Notes: generated by a model not told the origin, from the sequence alone. Positions 2,242 to 49,350 are shown, counted from the first letter of the stretch. The stretch: 64,000 bases of DNA from Candidatus Latescibacterota bacterium (GCA_963667175.2 CAXXXF010000003.1:513952-577951), one strand, 5' to 3'. Numbers and translations: made by a program.

Positions 2242-2883
2242 CTATCCAAGCGGGCTGCCGCCGCCGAAGAGGTCTTCTCCTTCTTCGGCGGTTTCTTCTT
2301 TGTTGGAGATGCCCCAGATCAGGCCGTGGGGATCCAGTTCGTTCAAAGGGGGGCTGTCGTAGTCCGGTTGGAGTTCGCTGCCGCAGATGGGACAGCACGC
2401 ATAGGAGGGATGATACAGGACGCCGTTGTTGCAGGTCTTGCAGGATTTCACCATCGTATCCAGCTTGTCGCCGCATCGCACACAGTGCTGAAAGTAGCCG
2501 TCGTAGGGCGTGCTCTCCCCGCACCCGGAACATTTCACCACGTCGTGCATGCCCAGTTTGTCGGCCGGCGGCTGCTCGAGCGAGATCGCCTGTCGGTCCG
2601 GCACGGAGACGTATTCGGCCTTGAACGTCTGGAATTTTTCGCGGATCTGGCTGGTCTGCACGCCCAGGTATTTTTCCGATATCGTGATCGTGAAGACCAG
2701 ATTGGGCGAAATGCCCAGGAAGTGGATGAGGTCACGCGTATTCCAGTCCCGCTGTTCCACGATGGTGGCCTTGTGGGTTTCGCACAGGCTGAGGAAGTCC
2801 TGGATTTTCTTTCGGTTCTCCCGCCGCCGGCTGTTGTCTTCACGTTCAAACTCGTACAGGGTGCCGAAGTCGACGCGGATCAT
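2242..2883 (-). CDS. Hypothetical protein with C-terminal double zinc ribbon
   Basis: Four CxxC pairs (CSGC, CVRC, CKTC, CPIC); start overlaps the uvrA stop (ATGA coupling). Confidence 0.7.
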   Translation of the reverse strand: MIRVDFGTLYEFEREDNSRRRENRKKIQDFLSLCETHKATIVEQRDWNTRDLIHFLGISPNLVFTITISEKYLGVQTSQIREKFQTFKAEYVSVPDRQAISLEQPPADKLGMHDVVKCSGCGESTPYDGYFQHCVRCGDKLDTMVKSCKTCNNGVLYHPSYACCPICGSELQPDYDSPPLNELDPHGLIWGISNKEETAEEGEDLFGGGSPLG

Positions 2884-5651
2884 GGTTCGATCACCTCTTT
2901 GAGAAAGCGGCCGGTGTGTGAGGCCGGCGCGGCGGAAACGCGTTCCGGGGGCCCCTCCGCGACGACCCTCCCGCCGGAATCGCCGCCGCCGGGACCGAGA
3001 TCGACGATCCAGTCCGCCCGTTTCACCACGTCCAGGTTGTGTTCGATCACAATGACGGTGTTGCCCTTGTCCACCAGCCGATCCAGAACCGAAACGAGCG
3101 TCCGGATGTCCTCGAAGTGCAGCCCGGTCGTCGGCTCGTCCAGAATATACATGGTTTTACCTGTTGCCACACGCGAAAGTTCGGCGGCCAGTTTGATGCG
3201 TTGCGCTTCGCCTCCGGAGAGGGCCGTCGCCGGCTGCCCCAGCCGGATATAACCCAGGCCGACGTCCGCGAGGGTTTCCAGCTTCCTCCGCGCGCCGGGT
3301 ATATCCCGAAAGAACGTGAGCGCCCTCTCGGTGGTCATCTTCAGGACGTCCGCGATCGAACAGCCCTTGTAGCGGATTTCCAGGGTCTCCCTGTTGTAAC
3401 GGCTTCCGCCACAGGCATCGCAGGTCACGTAGACGTCGGGAAGGAAGTCCATTTCGATCCGTTTGAGGCCGTCGCCCTGACAGGGCTCGCAGCGTCCCCC
3501 CTTCCGATTGAAGCTGAATCGACCGGGCGTATATCCCCGGACCCTGGACTCGGGCAGTTGCGCGTAGAGATCTCGAATGTCCGTAAAGACGTCGGTGTAG
3601 GTGGCCGCATTTGATCGCGGTGTCCGACCGATAGGCGCCTGATCGATCCGGATGATCTTGTCGATCCGGGAAAGTCCCTCGATGCCGTCGTGCCCAAGCG
3701 GTACGGCCGTGGCGTTGTGCAGCCTGTTCGCCAGCGCCGGATAGAGTGTCCCGTTGATCAGAGTGCTCTTTCCGGACCCGGACACACCGGTAACGCAGAC
3801 AAGGACGCCCAGCGGCAGCGTGACGTCAACGGACTTGAGATTGTGTCCTCGGGCGCCCTTCAATACGATCCGGCCGGTGGGTTGTCTGCTGTCGGGGGGC
3901 TGGGGGATGGATTTCCGCCCGGAGAGGTAAGCGCCCGTGAGGCATTCGCGGGCGGCCATAATATCCTCAACGCTACCCTGCGCGATCAGTTCGCCGCCCT
4001 GCTCGCCCGCTCCGGGCCCGAGGTCGATCAGATGGTCGGCGGCCATCATGGTCTCCCGGTCGTGTTCCACCACCAGAACCGTATTGCCGAGGTCCCGGAG
4101 CGTTTCCAGCGTGTCGATGAGCTTGCGGTTGTCCCCGGGGTGCAATCCGACACTGGGTTCGTCGAGGACGTAGAGCACTCCCGAAAGGCGCGTGCCGATC
4201 TGCGTGGCCATGCGGATCCGCTGCGTTTCGCCGCCAGAGAGGGAGGCCACGCTGCGTTCCAGCGTGAGATAACCCACACCCACGTCCCTCAGGAAGACGA
4301 GCCTGTTGCGGATTTCATCCAGAATCGTGTCGACGACCTCCCGGGGACCCAGTCTTCCCTTCAGGCGATCCATGAAATCGATGGCCCGGTCGATGCCCAT
4401 CGCCGATACCTGCCCGATATTGCTGCCGTCAATGGTGACCGCCAGGGCCTCCTTTCGCAACCTGGCGCCGGCACAGTCCGAGCAGACAACGGTACGGACG
4501 TACGGTTCCGGGGCGGACCCGGCTTCATCGGATGCGGCATCCGCAACCCGCCGGTTGAGGGACGGGATCACGCCGTCGAAGCCGAGGGATTCGTCGCCCC
4601 ACAGAATGGCCTCCTTCGCGCTGGTTGGAAGCGAACCGAACGGCGCGGCGACGTCGAACCCATACCGGTCCGCGAGGCGCCTGAGAAGGTCGAGCTTCGC
4701 GCGGCCCCTGGGGACGCCCCAGGGTGCGATTGCGCCCTCGGCTATGGAGCGCCCCGCGTCCGGAACGACGCAGTCAGGGTCTATTTCCGTCCTCTCGCCC
4801 ATTCCATTGCAGGCGGGACAGGCGCCGTGCGGGTTGTTGAACGAGAAAAGACGGGGCGTCAGTTCTTCGAGGGCGGCGTCGCAGTTTCTGCAGATCAACC
4901 GGGTGGAAAAGCTCAACTCACGGCCTTCGAGTACATCCAGAAGGACGATGCCGCCGGACAGGGCGAGCGCGGTTTCGAGCGAGTCGGCCAGCCGCCGTTC
5001 CATTTGCGGGCGGACGACCAGGCGGTCGATGACCGCGTCGACGGTATGCGGTCTCTTCGGGTCCAGGCGAATCTCCTCTTCCAGCGCCCGATCGCGGCCG
5101 TCGATCCGCACGCGCACGAATCCATCGCGCCGCAGGCGTTCCAGTTCCCGGTCCAGGCGACCTTTCCGGTTTCGTATCCATGGCGCCAGAATTCGGAGGC
5201 GGGCGCCCGCCGGCATCTCAAGCACCGTGTCGACGATTTCGCCAACGGTCTGGCAGGAGATGGGACTCCCGCAATGCGGGCAATGCGGCAGACCGGCCCG
5301 CGCGAAGAGGACCCTGAGATGGTCGTGGATTTCCGTGAGGGTGCCAACCGTCGACCTGGAATTTCCCGCGGCACGACGCTGTTGAATCGCTACGGCGGGG
5401 GAGAGGCCGTCGATGCTGTCGACGTCGGGTCTCTCCATCACCTCCAGGAAACGGCGCGTATGAGCGGACGTCGCCTCCACGTACCTGCGCTGTCCTTCGG
5501 CATAGATGGTGTCGAAGGCCAGCGAGGATTTCCCCGAGCCCGACGGCCCCGTGATGACGACAAACCGGTTCTTGGGGACGTCGAGATCGAGACCCCGCAG
5601 GTTGTGCTGGCGGGCGCCGCGTATTCGGATGGCGTCGTTTGCAGGTGGCAT
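2880..5651 (-). CDS. uvrA: Excinuclease ABC subunit A (start corrected to 5651)
   Basis: GARQHNL, GPSGSGKSSLAFDTIYAEGQRRYVE, zinc fingers, LSGGE signatures, second Walker A GVSGSGKST; the ORF-track extension to 5831 overlaps an RNA gene and terminator. Confidence 0.95.
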   Translation of the reverse strand: MPPANDAIRIRGARQHNLRGLDLDVPKNRFVVITGPSGSGKSSLAFDTIYAEGQRRYVEATSAHTRRFLEVMERPDVDSIDGLSPAVAIQQRRAAGNSRSTVGTLTEIHDHLRVLFARAGLPHCPHCGSPISCQTVGEIVDTVLEMPAGARLRILAPWIRNRKGRLDRELERLRRDGFVRVRIDGRDRALEEEIRLDPKRPHTVDAVIDRLVVRPQMERRLADSLETALALSGGIVLLDVLEGRELSFSTRLICRNCDAALEELTPRLFSFNNPHGACPACNGMGERTEIDPDCVVPDAGRSIAEGAIAPWGVPRGRAKLDLLRRLADRYGFDVAAPFGSLPTSAKEAILWGDESLGFDGVIPSLNRRVADAASDEAGSAPEPYVRTVVCSDCAGARLRKEALAVTIDGSNIGQVSAMGIDRAIDFMDRLKGRLGPREVVDTILDEIRNRLVFLRDVGVGYLTLERSVASLSGGETQRIRMATQIGTRLSGVLYVLDEPSVGLHPGDNRKLIDTLETLRDLGNTVLVVEHDRETMMAADHLIDLGPGAGEQGGELIAQGSVEDIMAARECLTGAYLSGRKSIPQPPDSRQPTGRIVLKGARGHNLKSVDVTLPLGVLVCVTGVSGSGKSTLINGTLYPALANRLHNATAVPLGHDGIEGLSRIDKIIRIDQAPIGRTPRSNAATYTDVFTDIRDLYAQLPESRVRGYTPGRFSFNRKGGRCEPCQGDGLKRIEMDFLPDVYVTCDACGGSRYNRETLEIRYKGCSIADVLKMTTERALTFFRDIPGARRKLETLADVGLGYIRLGQPATALSGGEAQRIKLAAELSRVATGKTMYILDEPTTGLHFEDIRTLVSVLDRLVDKGNTVIVIEHNLDVVKRADWIVDLGPGGGDSGGRVVAEGPPERVSAAPASHTGRFLKEVIEP

Positions 5652-5666
5652 GCGGGATTGGCGAGG

Positions 5667-5696
5667 CAAAACCCCGATCGGGCGACCGGGGTTTTG
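5667..5696 (-). terminator. Intrinsic terminator hairpin (bidirectional form) just after the tRNA-like gene
   Basis: CAAAACCCC...GGGGTTTTG inverted repeat with T-tracts on both strands. Confidence 0.75.
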
Positions 5697-5698
5697 GA

Positions 5699-5766
5699 TG
5701 GCGCGGCAGAGAGGACTCGAACCTCCAACCATCCGGTCCGAAGCCGGATGCTTGAACCGCTGCCGC
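5699..5766 (-). tRNA. tRNA-Arg(UCG)-like RNA lacking a D-arm (68 nt, encoded CCA)
   Basis: GCGGCAG-cggttcaagca-TCCGG-CTTCGGA-CCGGA-tggtt-GGAGG-TTCGAGT-CCTCT-CTGCCGC-G-CCA: perfect acceptor and anticodon stems, canonical T-arm, only 11 nt where the D-arm should be. Confidence 0.8.
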
Positions 5767-5780
5767 GGAGGCGTTGGATA

Positions 5781-5808
5781 AATATACGCACCGCCGGCGC
5801 CGTTGCAA
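5781..5808 (-). promoter_or_regulatory. Putative sigma70 promoter of the tRNA-like gene
   Basis: TTGCAA-16 nt-TATATT on the minus strand, 14 nt upstream of the mature 5' end. Confidence 0.6.
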
Positions 5809-5824
5809 GCCCAAAAATCGCCAC

Positions 5825-5853
5825 TTGACAATGGCGGACGAAATGGGAAAATT
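5825..5853 (+). promoter_or_regulatory. Possible divergent promoter for hemL
   Basis: Consensus TTGACA at 5825-5830 with a weak -10 (AAAATT) 17 nt downstream. Confidence 0.35.
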
Positions 5854-5912
5854 AGGGACTTGCCGCAGCTGAGCTGAAATCCGAAAGCGGCCGTTGTGTC
5901 AGGGGGTATGTT

Positions 5913-7202
5913 GTGAACAACCGTTCGGCAGCGTTATTCGAAGCGGCGCAGCGGGTGATTCCGGGCGGCGTGAACAGCCCGGCGCGTGCTTTCGGCCCCG
6001 TAGGCGGCCAGCCGCTGTTCATAACGCGAGGAAGCGGGTCGAAAGTTTTCGATGCGGACGGGCGGGAGTTTGTCGACTACGTCTGTTCGTGGGGACCGCT
6101 GGTTCTGGGCCACGCGCCGCCAGGCGTGGTAGAAGCGCTCAAGCGGACCTGCGAGCAGGGTACGAGTTTCGGGGCGCCCACTGAGACAGAGGTTGAAATG
6201 GCCCGGCTGGTCACCGAACGCGTGCCCGGTGTGGAAATGGTGCGCATGGTGAACTCGGGTACCGAGGCCACGATGTCAGCCGTGCGTCTGGCCAGGGGGG
6301 TTACGGGACGCGAGAAGGTGATCAAGTTCGAGGGCTGCTGGCACGGGCACGCCGACAGCTTTCTGATTCAGGCCGGGTCGTCGGCGCTCACCACGGGCGT
6401 GCCCAGCAGCCCCGGCGTGACCGCGGGCACGGCGGCTGGCACCCTCACCGCGCCCTACAACGACCTCGAGGCGGTTGAGCGGATCGTGGCGGAGAACCCG
6501 GACGAGATCGCGGCGGTCATCGTGGAGCCGGTGGCAGGCAATATGGGTGTGATTCCGCCGGCGGACGGATTCCTGGAAGGATTGCGGGAACTCACCGCGG
6601 ATTCGGAGATTGTGCTCATATTCGACGAAGTAATCACCGGATTCAGGGTTCATCCGGGCGGCGCCCAGGCGTTATACGGGGTCACGCCCGATCTGACCAC
6701 GCTCGGCAAAATTATCGGCGGCGGGCTGCCGGTGGGCGCCTTCGGCGGCAGGCGGGAGATCATGTCGCATATTTCGCCGCTCGGCAAAGGGGTATCGCAG
6801 GCCGGGACGCTATCGGGAAATCCCCTCGCGATGACGGCGGGCCGCGAGACGCTCAGGCAACTCCGGGAACCCGGCGCGTATGAATCGCTGGAAGCCAAAG
6901 CCGCCGCCCTGGAGGCCGGCTTCCGGGAAAACCTGAGGTCGCTCGGATTGCCGTTTCAACTGAACCGGGTCGGGTCCATGATGACCCTGTTCTTTACGGA
7001 CCGTCCCGTGACGCGATACGCGGCCGCCGTCGCGTGCGACCAGGAGGTTTTCGCGCGTTACTTCCGGCTGATGCTGGAACAGGGCGTCTATCTGGCGCCT
7101 TCCCAGTTCGAAGCGACCTTTGTCTCGCTGGCGCATACGGACGCGGATATCGACCGGACCGTGGAAGCGCAGTACAAAGCCTTGAAATCATGCGCAGTCT
7201 GA
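5913..7202 (+). CDS. hemL: Glutamate-1-semialdehyde 2,1-aminomutase
   Basis: [61 protein letters not shown]. Confidence 0.95.
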
Positions 7203-7654
7203 GAGTCATTCTCCTCCTGTCGCTCGGGGCGCCGGGATGCGGCGGCGAAAGCGATCACTTTACCCGGCTCCGTTCCGGCACGCCGCAAGAGCGCGAGGAT
7301 GCGGCGGCGTATCTCGGCGCCCGCCGGATTCCCGGATCGGCGCCCTATTTGCGACAGGCGCTGAGGGATACGGTTCCGGAGGTGCGCGCCAAGGCGATCT
7401 GGGCGCTGGGGATGCTGGGCGCCGTCGAAGCGCTTCCCGATCTGGCGCCATTCCTTACGGCCAACAGCCGCCGGTTGCGCCAGCAGGCCGCCGTCGCGAT
7501 GATGCACATCGAACAGCCCGAGGCGATCGCCGTTCTTGAGCTGGCGATGCAGACGGAGAGAGACCCGTGGGTCAGAAGCGATCTGGCGAGGGCGATAGCG
7601 CACCTCAAGCAGTTCGTGGGAGAATCCGACGTCGCGGAGGGCACGTTCCGTTAG
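7190..7654 (+). CDS. HEAT-repeat protein, likely lipoprotein
   Basis: N-terminal hydrophobic stretch ending in GCGG; repeats of the L..AL.D..PEVR..A..ALG type; overlaps the hemL stop. Confidence 0.75.
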
Positions 7655-7924
7655 CAGTCCGTTGAAAAAGTCGCTCTGCAGGCGAGACCGAGTCATTGTG
7701 GCCGAAGACAAGGCGCGCCTGTCTGCGTGCCTGCCTGCGCCGAGACGTGCTCGGCAGGCAGGCGGACACGCACAGGCAGGCGACCGACGCGAATGCCTGG
7801 ATTCGGGGAGGGAGCGCCTGCCTGCCGCAGGCAGGCAACGCCGTATTTCGGTCACAAGGGCCGGACGCCTGTCTGCGTGCGAACGCACAGGCAGGCAGCC
7901 CGGATGGACTTTATCAACGGGCTG
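7655..7924. mobile_element. 270-bp MITE with 18-bp terminal inverted repeats and TTAG target duplication
   Basis: CAGTCCGTTGAAAAAGTC (7655-7672) versus GACTTTATCAACGGGCTG (7907-7924), 16/18 match; TTAG at 7651-7654 and 7925-7928; no transposase. Confidence 0.75.
7719..7895. repeat. Cluster of CCTG(T/C)CTGC...CAGGCAGG palindromes inside the MITE, one nested in another
   Basis: Copies near 7719-7781, 7817-7835 and 7868-7895. Confidence 0.7.
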
Positions 7925-7983
7925 TTAGGCGGTTTCGGCCTTGCCCTTTTTCAGGGACATGACATTACGGGGGCATTTCACTT

Positions 7984-24945: not shown

Positions 24946-25022
24946 TGGTGGGCCCGGACGGATTCGAACCATCGACCTCTACTTTATCAGAGTAGCGCTC
25001 TAACCGACTGAGCTACGGGCCC
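24946..25022 (-). tRNA. tRNA-Ile(GAU)
   Basis: GGGCCCGTAGCTCAGTCGGTTAGAGCGCTACTCTGATAAAGTAGAGGTCGATGGTTCGAATCCGTCCGGGCCCACCA, full cloverleaf. Confidence 0.97.

Positions 25023-47844: not shown

Positions 47845-49350
<1,506 letters not shown>

Follow-up and report, generated by a model that had tools for sequence, protein, structure and literature searches.

The hemL-uvrA intergenic region of a Candidatus Latescibacterota genome holds a 68-nt element that is most probably a pseudogene of tRNA-Arg(UCG), placed inside a conserved tRNA-uvrA promoter and leader. The element lies in a window of 64,000 nucleotides (the whole stretch of DNA analysed here) on contig C3 of an assembly of 18 contigs, 5.52 Mb in size and 95.2% complete, which we call G000; the sequencing runs that contain the window are mostly sponge metagenomes. 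The features of the region, in window positions, are as follows.

5699..5766, minus strand: probable tRNA-Arg(UCG) relic, 68 nt (ARAGORN; Rfam, 42.3 bits; alignments to orthologues)
5767..5780, minus strand: leader from the -10 hexamer to the 5' end of the relic, evolving about neutrally
5781..5808, minus strand: putative sigma-70-like promoter, TTGCAA-16-TATATT, that would serve the tRNA (or its relic) and uvrA (9 of 12 consensus positions matched in the scan)
5668..5695, minus strand: hairpin AAAACCCCGG...CGGGGTTTT between the relic and uvrA, with an A-run, a CCCCGG...CGGGG stem and a 4-T run (folds as a long stem)
2880..5651, minus strand: uvrA (ORF list; ATG at 5651-5649)
5825..5852, plus strand: putative divergent hemL promoter TTGACA-16-(TG)GAAAAT (scan, 10 of 12 matches), part of a conserved box upstream of the relic promoter
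5913..7202, plus strand: hemL, a glutamate-1-semialdehyde aminomutase-like ORF (ORF list), the divergent neighbour family-wide

The element has a perfect acceptor stem (GCGGCAG/CTGCCGC, 7 of 7 pairs), an anticodon stem TCCGG/CCGGA that closes the loop CTTCGGA with the anticodon TCG, a variable loop TGGTT, a T arm with the stem GGAGG/CCTCT and the loop TTCGAGT, and at its 3' end the discriminator G73 followed by an encoded CCA. All 17 pairs are intact, one G-U having turned A-U. C occupies position 8, and an 11-nt linker, CGGTTCAAGCA (= GGTTCAAGCA), stands between the acceptor stem and the anticodon stem where the D-arm would be. ARAGORN called a 68-nt tRNA-Arg(tcg), placing its anticodon at position 26. 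The Rfam tRNA model (RF00005), whose gathering score is 29, matched the element at 42.3 bits (E 1.3e-05 for the whole window), in an alignment that skips all D-loop positions but 2. The anatomy proposed in an earlier sequence-only reading, with its perfect 7-bp acceptor stem, anticodon stem-loop, T-arm, G discriminator and CCA, is thus confirmed in full, and so are the 11-nt replacement of the D-arm and C8 (by ARAGORN, Rfam and the sequence itself). The rnk leader, mascRNA, mir-8521 and Plastid-ycf2 models were rejected as the identity of the element, their scores being far under the gathering scores.

Compared with the 77-nt orthologue of relatives, the G000 element has a 9-nt deletion that left the 11-nt linker where the D-loop and the 3' strand of the D-stem had been, together with C8 and G73. 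The D-arm of 3-4 pairs with a 7-11-nt loop that belongs to an elongator-tRNA cloverleaf is absent. The nucleotides U8, A14, G18, G19 and A21 are conserved for the tertiary structure of tRNA; the relic has C in place of U8 and, by comparison with the intact orthologues, has lost A14-A21. The ArgRS identity set, from work in E. coli and T. thermophilus, consists of C35, G or U at position 36, and A20. C35 and G36 are present in the relic, and A20 is deleted.

A DNA search of the whole family (22 genomes, sponge-associated Latescibacterota MAGs) matched the locus in 22 of 22 genomes. The order hemL-tRNA-uvrA, with hemL divergent upstream and uvrA downstream, is kept family-wide; hemL adjoins the tRNA locus in 20 of the 22 loci by tblastn, and the remaining two (L013 and L015) end short on that side. 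Nine genomes have an intact tRNA-Arg(UCG) gene of 76-77 nt with the D-arm AGCTC-AATTGGATA-GAGC, namely seven genomes of four other genera and the genus mates G018 and G019. In one genome, G016, the gene is split in the D-loop by a 166-nt insert. A deletion of 9, 10 or 11 nt in the D-loop and 3' D-stem is present in the other 12 genomes, G000 included, all of which belong to one genus, and the deleted form is confined to 12 of the 15 species of that genus. Relatives carry an intact tRNA gene at the corresponding position, to which the element is orthologous, and this places it far beyond chance. The same locus shows an intact gene in 9 genomes, a 9-11-nt loss in 12 and a separate MITE lesion of the same gene in G016. 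The sequence-only reading had named a full D-arm in close relatives as the observation that would speak against it, and G018 and G019 carry exactly this.

Could the missing D-loop be an assembly or sequencing error in G000? Its apparent 9-nt length variant, which has an extra A, is private to the G000 assembly, a point in favour of an error. Against this, the same deletion, with at most 1 nt difference, is present in the assemblies of 11 other species, several of them single-contig, and a promoter-box pattern search found a further copy on an unrelated metagenome contig (L135) whose allele is identical to that of G006. The runs X1 and X2 contain 0.82-0.83 of the sampled words of window positions 5300-6300. 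Because the deletion stands in 12 separate assemblies and in one more metagenome contig, we consider such an error very unlikely.

The intact and the deleted forms evolve in very different ways. The intact orthologues are 98% identical over five genera, and their sole stem change is compensatory (C5-G68 to U5-A68). They have 10 parsimony changes over 77 sites, against 156 over 68 and 167 over 63 at the 4-fold sites of the flanking genes, and they evolve at no more than 0.05 times the neutral rate. The 12 deleted alleles have 43 changes over 57 non-linker sites, and 19 of their 204 stem cells are unpaired. The rate of the relic is 0.51 times the 4-fold rate and 0.41 times that of the adjacent spacer and leader (p ~1e-5); constraint on it is relaxed about tenfold, short of full neutrality. 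The slowdown is even over the arms, with 0.57 changes per site in the acceptor stem, 0.71 in the T-arm and 0.88 in the anticodon arm. A focus of constraint on the acceptor/T minihelix was rejected, changes per site being similar over the arms. The earlier reading called for a search of the uvrA-hemL region of related genomes for a conserved short D-region with covarying stems. The deletion is found in 12 of 22 genomes, and covariation in the deleted alleles stands at shuffle level, with 138 of 500 shuffles reaching the observed score and 221 of 500 reaching the observed paired fraction.

The damage differs from species to species. In G013, the sister of G000, the loop reads CTACGTA (anticodon ACG) in a broken stem, and in G014 the anticodon is now TTG. 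The G007 relic has three acceptor mismatches and an altered T-loop (T55), the G011 relic has an altered T-loop (T55), and those of G012, G015 and G009 have T-stem mismatches; overall, acceptor or T stems are broken or the T-loop is changed in 7 of the 12 alleles. All stems are kept in the alleles of G000, G010 and G008. Rfam scores fall in parallel: the seven intact orthologues scanned score 67.7-69.3 bits, five of the 12 deleted alleles pass the threshold at 47.3, 46.7, 44.8, 42.3 (G000) and 38.7 bits, two lie under the gathering score at 26.2 (G013) and 24.7 bits, and the remaining five have no Rfam tRNA match at E up to 10. ARAGORN calls a tRNA in one of the 12. The strong purifying selection of a functional tRNA is not what the deleted alleles display; they are decaying. 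The fall in score, the stem breaks and the lack of covariation together read as the signature of a pseudogene in these comparisons. Two observations count on the other side. At 0.51 times the neutral rate, the relic either does not drift fully freely or its alleles are younger than the species; and the stems of G000 are all intact, which for six lineage changes has a chance of about 8% by a rough estimate.

The signals around the relic have a different history. The promoter scan of the region returned 2 sites against 0.1 expected from shuffles, the second being the divergent hemL promoter, and the relic and hemL promoters stand back to back. Over the 12 deleted alleles, the -10 hexamer is unchanged at all 6 sites and the -35 hexamer has 1 change in 6, the 5' strand of the hairpin stem has 0 in 6 and the 3' strand 2 in 6, and the hemL-promoter box has 5 in 25. 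The spacer between the hexamers has 28 changes in 16 sites, the leader 27 in 14 countable sites, and the 4-fold sites 1.40-1.53 changes per site. Promoter hexamers and hairpin stems together evolve at 0.085 times the 4-fold rate, including in species with a wrecked relic, and therefore something besides the tRNA needs them. Downstream, the uvrA ATG is 16 nt past the T-run of the hairpin and 47 nt past the CCA of the relic, and the uvrA N-terminus (MPPANDAIRIRGARQHNL...) aligns at the same ATG in all genus mates. Consensus scans of G000 and three other genera found no second promoter-like site between the tRNA and uvrA. The promoter and hairpin stay strongly conserved even with a wrecked tRNA, and the scans show nothing else like a promoter ahead of uvrA, so the transcription unit probably serves uvrA. 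The simplest reading would be a tRNA-uvrA transcription unit with a dead tRNA, with co-transcription inferred from this arrangement. The RNA runs X19 and X20 contain 0.06 of the sampled words of the window.

Of the signals named in the sequence-only reading, the promoter TTGCAA-16-TATATT holds and is conserved, whereas the terminator holds in part: the hairpin is real, and the terminator scan made no call there because the four T that follow it are too few. The hairpin may be a weak terminator or attenuator, or else the 5' stem-loop of the uvrA mRNA. In G006, the uvrA N-terminus (L022 ~1626-2503) matches in two pieces with a gap at residues 104-126, where a frameshift, a small deletion or an assembly error is possible.

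The position of the relic also bears on whether its fold is still used. A D-arm-less fold could still have a role in the uvrA transcript and be maintained by weak selection, either as an RNase P/RNase Z cleavage module that frees the mRNA at a protective hairpin or as a leader that tunes expression. RNase P requires only the acceptor/T-arm helix, the relic evolves at about half the neutral rate, three alleles (G000, G010 and G008) keep all stems, and the relic, flanked by a conserved promoter and a conserved hairpin, ends 47 nt short of the uvrA ATG, the scans showing no second promoter-like site. However, constraint has no peak on the acceptor/T-arm minihelix (0.57 and 0.71 against 0.88 changes per site), seven of the 12 alleles are damaged in the acceptor stem, the T stem or the T-loop, the locus is still kept in G016 where the 166-nt element splits the gene, and interspecies recombination alone could lower the apparent rate. 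We regard a retained fold of this kind as possible but unlikely. The suggestion of the sequence-only reading that the element is a regulatory leader for uvrA is accordingly upheld in a weaker form, for the promoter and hairpin, which are conserved where the tRNA is wrecked, and not for the tRNA-like fold itself.

The insert in G016 is 166 nt long, with the terminal inverted repeats GAAGCTGT.../...ACAGCTTC and a TCA duplication (L008 ~1326-1491). We take it as a MITE because G000 has four near-full copies of it (C3:74393-74554, C13:129732-129861, C16:52287-52477 and C9:16486-16696). One G000 copy lies directly behind tRNA-Arg(CCT). The 9-, 10- and 11-nt deletions can all be aligned with the same left edge, after AGCTCA, which is the exact MITE insertion point in G016; this is suggestive of the deletion being a MITE excision footprint. 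A second MITE family (~168 nt, TTAA ends, dozens of G000 copies, at ~7651-7927 in the window) occurs variably between hemL and the promoter; six genus mates have it in this spacer (L002, L006, L008, L009, L014 and L018).

Besides the deletion, the deleted alleles share C8 and C29-G41 (against U-A), which together argue for a single origin. The species tree does not follow this grouping. In the tree of rpoB and secA, G010 (deleted) is sister to G018 (intact), in a clade with G016 (MITE) and G019 (intact), and the 12 deletion carriers as one clade were rejected (AU p 0.0007) in a test whose constrained carrier group had been named after a first tree was seen. The relic alleles are homoplastic on the species tree (consistency index 0.68): G013, G006 and G011 have states in common although they belong to different clades, and cross-clade shared derived states occur in columns 8, 17, 19, 23 and 58 of alignment A1 (L002/G010 against L007/G018). 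Such discordance would need either interspecies recombination or parallel change, the second of which would be a hint of selection. The pattern suggests short-patch recombination between co-resident congeners at the locus, which would make the alleles younger than the species and so explain part of the half-neutral rate without function; the alternative would be weak selection acting on a tRNA-shaped portion of the uvrA leader. A broader scenario combines these elements: the allele would have arisen once, possibly as the footprint of a MITE aimed at the D-loop, gained C8 and the stronger C29-G41, spread by short-patch recombination among co-resident sponge symbionts, and been retained by weak purifying selection in some lineages, G000 among them, where its tRNA-like shape would serve the uvrA transcript in processing or stability, or would act as a minimal tRNA that is charged poorly. 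We hold this scenario as a whole to be unlikely.

By ARAGORN and Rfam, the tRNA-Arg set of the G000 assembly consists of UCU, CCU, CCG and the UCG-like element, and neither program found a tRNA-Arg with ACG or GCG there, a gap that might have rendered the element essential. BLAST of the ACG gene of the genus against G000 returned other tRNAs only; the ACG-locus flanks of 6 relatives and 80 kb of G017 returned paralog-level matches only, and for G017 this covers at least 80 kb around the gene. We found no synteny break at a G000 contig end near the missing ACG region. ARAGORN at a permissive threshold made 1784 calls on G000 and was uninformative for ACG. Stretches of L059 that had no cover in some runs were uninformative as well.

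Elsewhere in the family, tRNA-Arg(ACG) is present in 20 of the 21 other genomes, the exception being an assembly in 320 contigs. Thirteen genus mates have it at 100% identity and the fourteenth at 99% (0-1 change). All 11 other deletion carriers have it, the G000 assembly being without it, and G014, a complete genus mate with the deletion, carries a normal copy. The G000 TadA is intact (165 bits against a cut-off of 150), and to our knowledge tRNA-Arg(ACG) is the only bacterial substrate of TadA. In a rough count over long ORFs, CGT and CGC make up ~44% of the G000 Arg codons and CGA ~12%; the ACG tRNA is needed because of that ~44%. The run X2, which also holds the window, yielded a 2064-nt contig spanning the ACG gene, ~93% identical to the G013 locus, in line with the 95% identity of G000 and G013 in rpoB and secA; X2 is apparently a mixed sample, so this contig supports but does not prove the gene in the organism. 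The G000 assembly is also without tRNA-Glu(CTC), which lies 18-21 kb from tRNA-Arg(ACG) in G014 (C1:4344045-4344121 and 4365368-4365440) and in G017 (C2 ~662365-680780), within a region to which G000 has matches at paralog level only. Most likely, the ACG gene is missing from the G000 assembly, in an unassembled region, and not from the organism.

If the relic were instead a working minimal tRNA-Arg(UCG), charged with arginine and used for CGA codons or as a non-ribosomal Arg donor, it would be the first natural D-armless bacterial tRNA. Three arms (acceptor, anticodon and T) are whole, its sequence has C35, G36 and the CCA, its Rfam score exceeds the gathering score, the G000 assembly is without tRNA-Arg(ACG), and CGA accounts for ~12% of Arg codons. 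An engineered D-armless tRNA is also reported to work in E. coli (PMC11551756).

The balance is nonetheless against such a tRNA. A20, G18, G19 and U8 are gone, the copy of the sister G013 is wrecked (26.2 bits), covariation is not in excess, and ARAGORN is silent on 11 of the 12 deleted alleles. tRNA-Arg(ACG) is invariant in the genus with TadA intact. The G000 ArgRS, encoded on contig C15, is canonical, with the N-terminal Arg_tRNA_synt_N domain (PF03485, 67.3 bits); this domain reads the D-loop, A20 being the nucleotide read. In rpoB and secA, CGA use barely differs, at 238 of 2360 Arg codons (10.1%) in the deleted species against 53 of 395 (13.4%) in two intact genus mates; a shift in codon use after the deletion was rejected as evidence, two genes from related genomes being too weak a basis. 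We therefore judge a working minimal tRNA distinctly improbable. The sequence-only reading saw in the intact stems and signals the work of selection on a minimal tRNA, a donor of Arg or a nuclease decoy; the full D-arm at the locus in G018 and G019 and the decay of the deleted alleles in most congeners do not support this. Its own alternative, a decaying dispensable tRNA whose codon CGA can be read by ICG, is now favoured, with tRNA-Arg(ACG) and TadA present in the lineage.

The pseudogene reading can be set beside known systems. Like other bacterial tRNA pseudogenes, the relic has an internal disabling deletion, an intact positional orthologue, relaxed constraint, stem breaks and a redundant isoacceptor. 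Unlike the usual ones, it is unusually long-lived (12 species), its promoter and downstream hairpin are near-invariant, it evolves at about half the neutral rate, and its distribution conflicts with the species tree. With the canonical tRNA-Arg(UCG) (RF00005; G018, G019 and four other genera) it shares the same three arms, anticodon, CCA, promoter and position, but it is without A14-A21 and part of the D-stem, has C8, C29-G41 and G73, and scores 25 bits lower. A protein gene directly behind a tRNA gene has a precedent in E. coli, where thrU-tyrU-glyT-thrT-tufB is a tRNA-mRNA co-transcription unit. The likeness lies in a tRNA gene that immediately precedes a protein gene of the same orientation, with the sole recognisable promoter ahead of the tRNA; at uvrA, however, co-transcription is putative, and in most species of the genus the tRNA of the pair has died.

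The D-armless tRNAs of animal mitochondria (tRNA-Ser(AGY) and nematode types; PMC7609411, PMC4013460) likewise have a short linker for the D-arm. The mitochondrial tRNAs are conserved and essential and have co-adapted factors, whereas the form of the relic is recent, limited to part of one genus, decaying and redundant. The conserved form and sole-decoder role of the mitochondrial type are absent here, as normal tRNAs cover CGN. The likeness to the mitochondrial tRNAs extends to shape alone (PMC7609411). Edelmann et al. (2024; PMC11551756) report that E. coli uses an engineered D-armless 'mini HisT', limited by degradation, that EF-Tu, the ribosome and one synthetase accept the D-armless fold, and that all known bacterial tRNAs are canonical. 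Mini HisT is, like the relic, a bacterial tRNA body without a D-arm. It is artificial, however, and HisRS is independent of the D-loop, whereas ArgRS reads A20. Since an engineered D-armless tRNA of this kind is usable in E. coli, a small probability stays on the minimal-tRNA reading. The literature search listed no account of a tRNA without a D-arm, or of a decayed tRNA gene, in Latescibacterota.

We propose the following course of events for the locus. In this family, an ordinary tRNA-Arg(UCG) gene stands between hemL and uvrA, immediately before uvrA and on its strand. In most species of the genus, 9-11 nt of the D-loop and 3' D-stem were lost, taking G18, G19, A20 and the partner of U8, and with them the tRNA elbow and the D-loop that ArgRS reads; we infer that arginylation was lost. 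The UCG isoacceptor would have been dispensable because tRNA-Arg(ACG), as ICG after TadA editing, and tRNA-Arg(CCG), which is present in G000, can cover all CGN codons. After the deletion the relic has drifted, its three remaining stems happening to be intact in G000 and not so in the sister species. The promoter and hairpin are still under strong selection, most likely as expression signals of uvrA, for which there is no space to have separate ones. Transcription of the relic probably continues, with the relic making up about the first 68 nt of the uvrA transcript.

Some further observations concern RNA genes elsewhere. The 16S rRNA gene of the window (47851-49350, minus strand) has no 23S rRNA in the 47 kb downstream within the window, and the nearest tRNA-Ile(GAT) (24946-25022, minus strand) is 23 kb from it; the rRNA genes appear unlinked. 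ARAGORN reported seven more odd-length tRNAs in G000 (81-102 nt, one of 77 nt), which the Rfam tRNA model did not report and which are likely false positives or other tRNA-like elements. They are located as follows.

C6:528073-528163, odd-length ARAGORN call
C18:248993-249073, odd-length ARAGORN call
C16:36547-36648, odd-length ARAGORN call
C17:32226-32317, odd-length ARAGORN call
C13:52656-52736, odd-length ARAGORN call
C13:71681-71761, odd-length ARAGORN call
C15:832564-832640, odd-length ARAGORN call

A working D-armless tRNA at this locus would overturn the statement that all known bacterial tRNAs are canonical (PMC11551756). For annotation, tRNA finders report relics as genes, ARAGORN and Rfam both calling the G000 element, and intact stems in one genome are weak evidence of function. 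Those who study recombination in sponge symbionts may be interested in the half-neutral rate, in the alleles shared between species and in the MITE that coincides with the deletion's left edge. For this family, the comparative data provide a clear and datable case of a redundant bacterial tRNA gene dying, by one internal deletion and then slow decay, in which the promoter of the gene outlives the tRNA, apparently since the neighbour uvrA depends on it.
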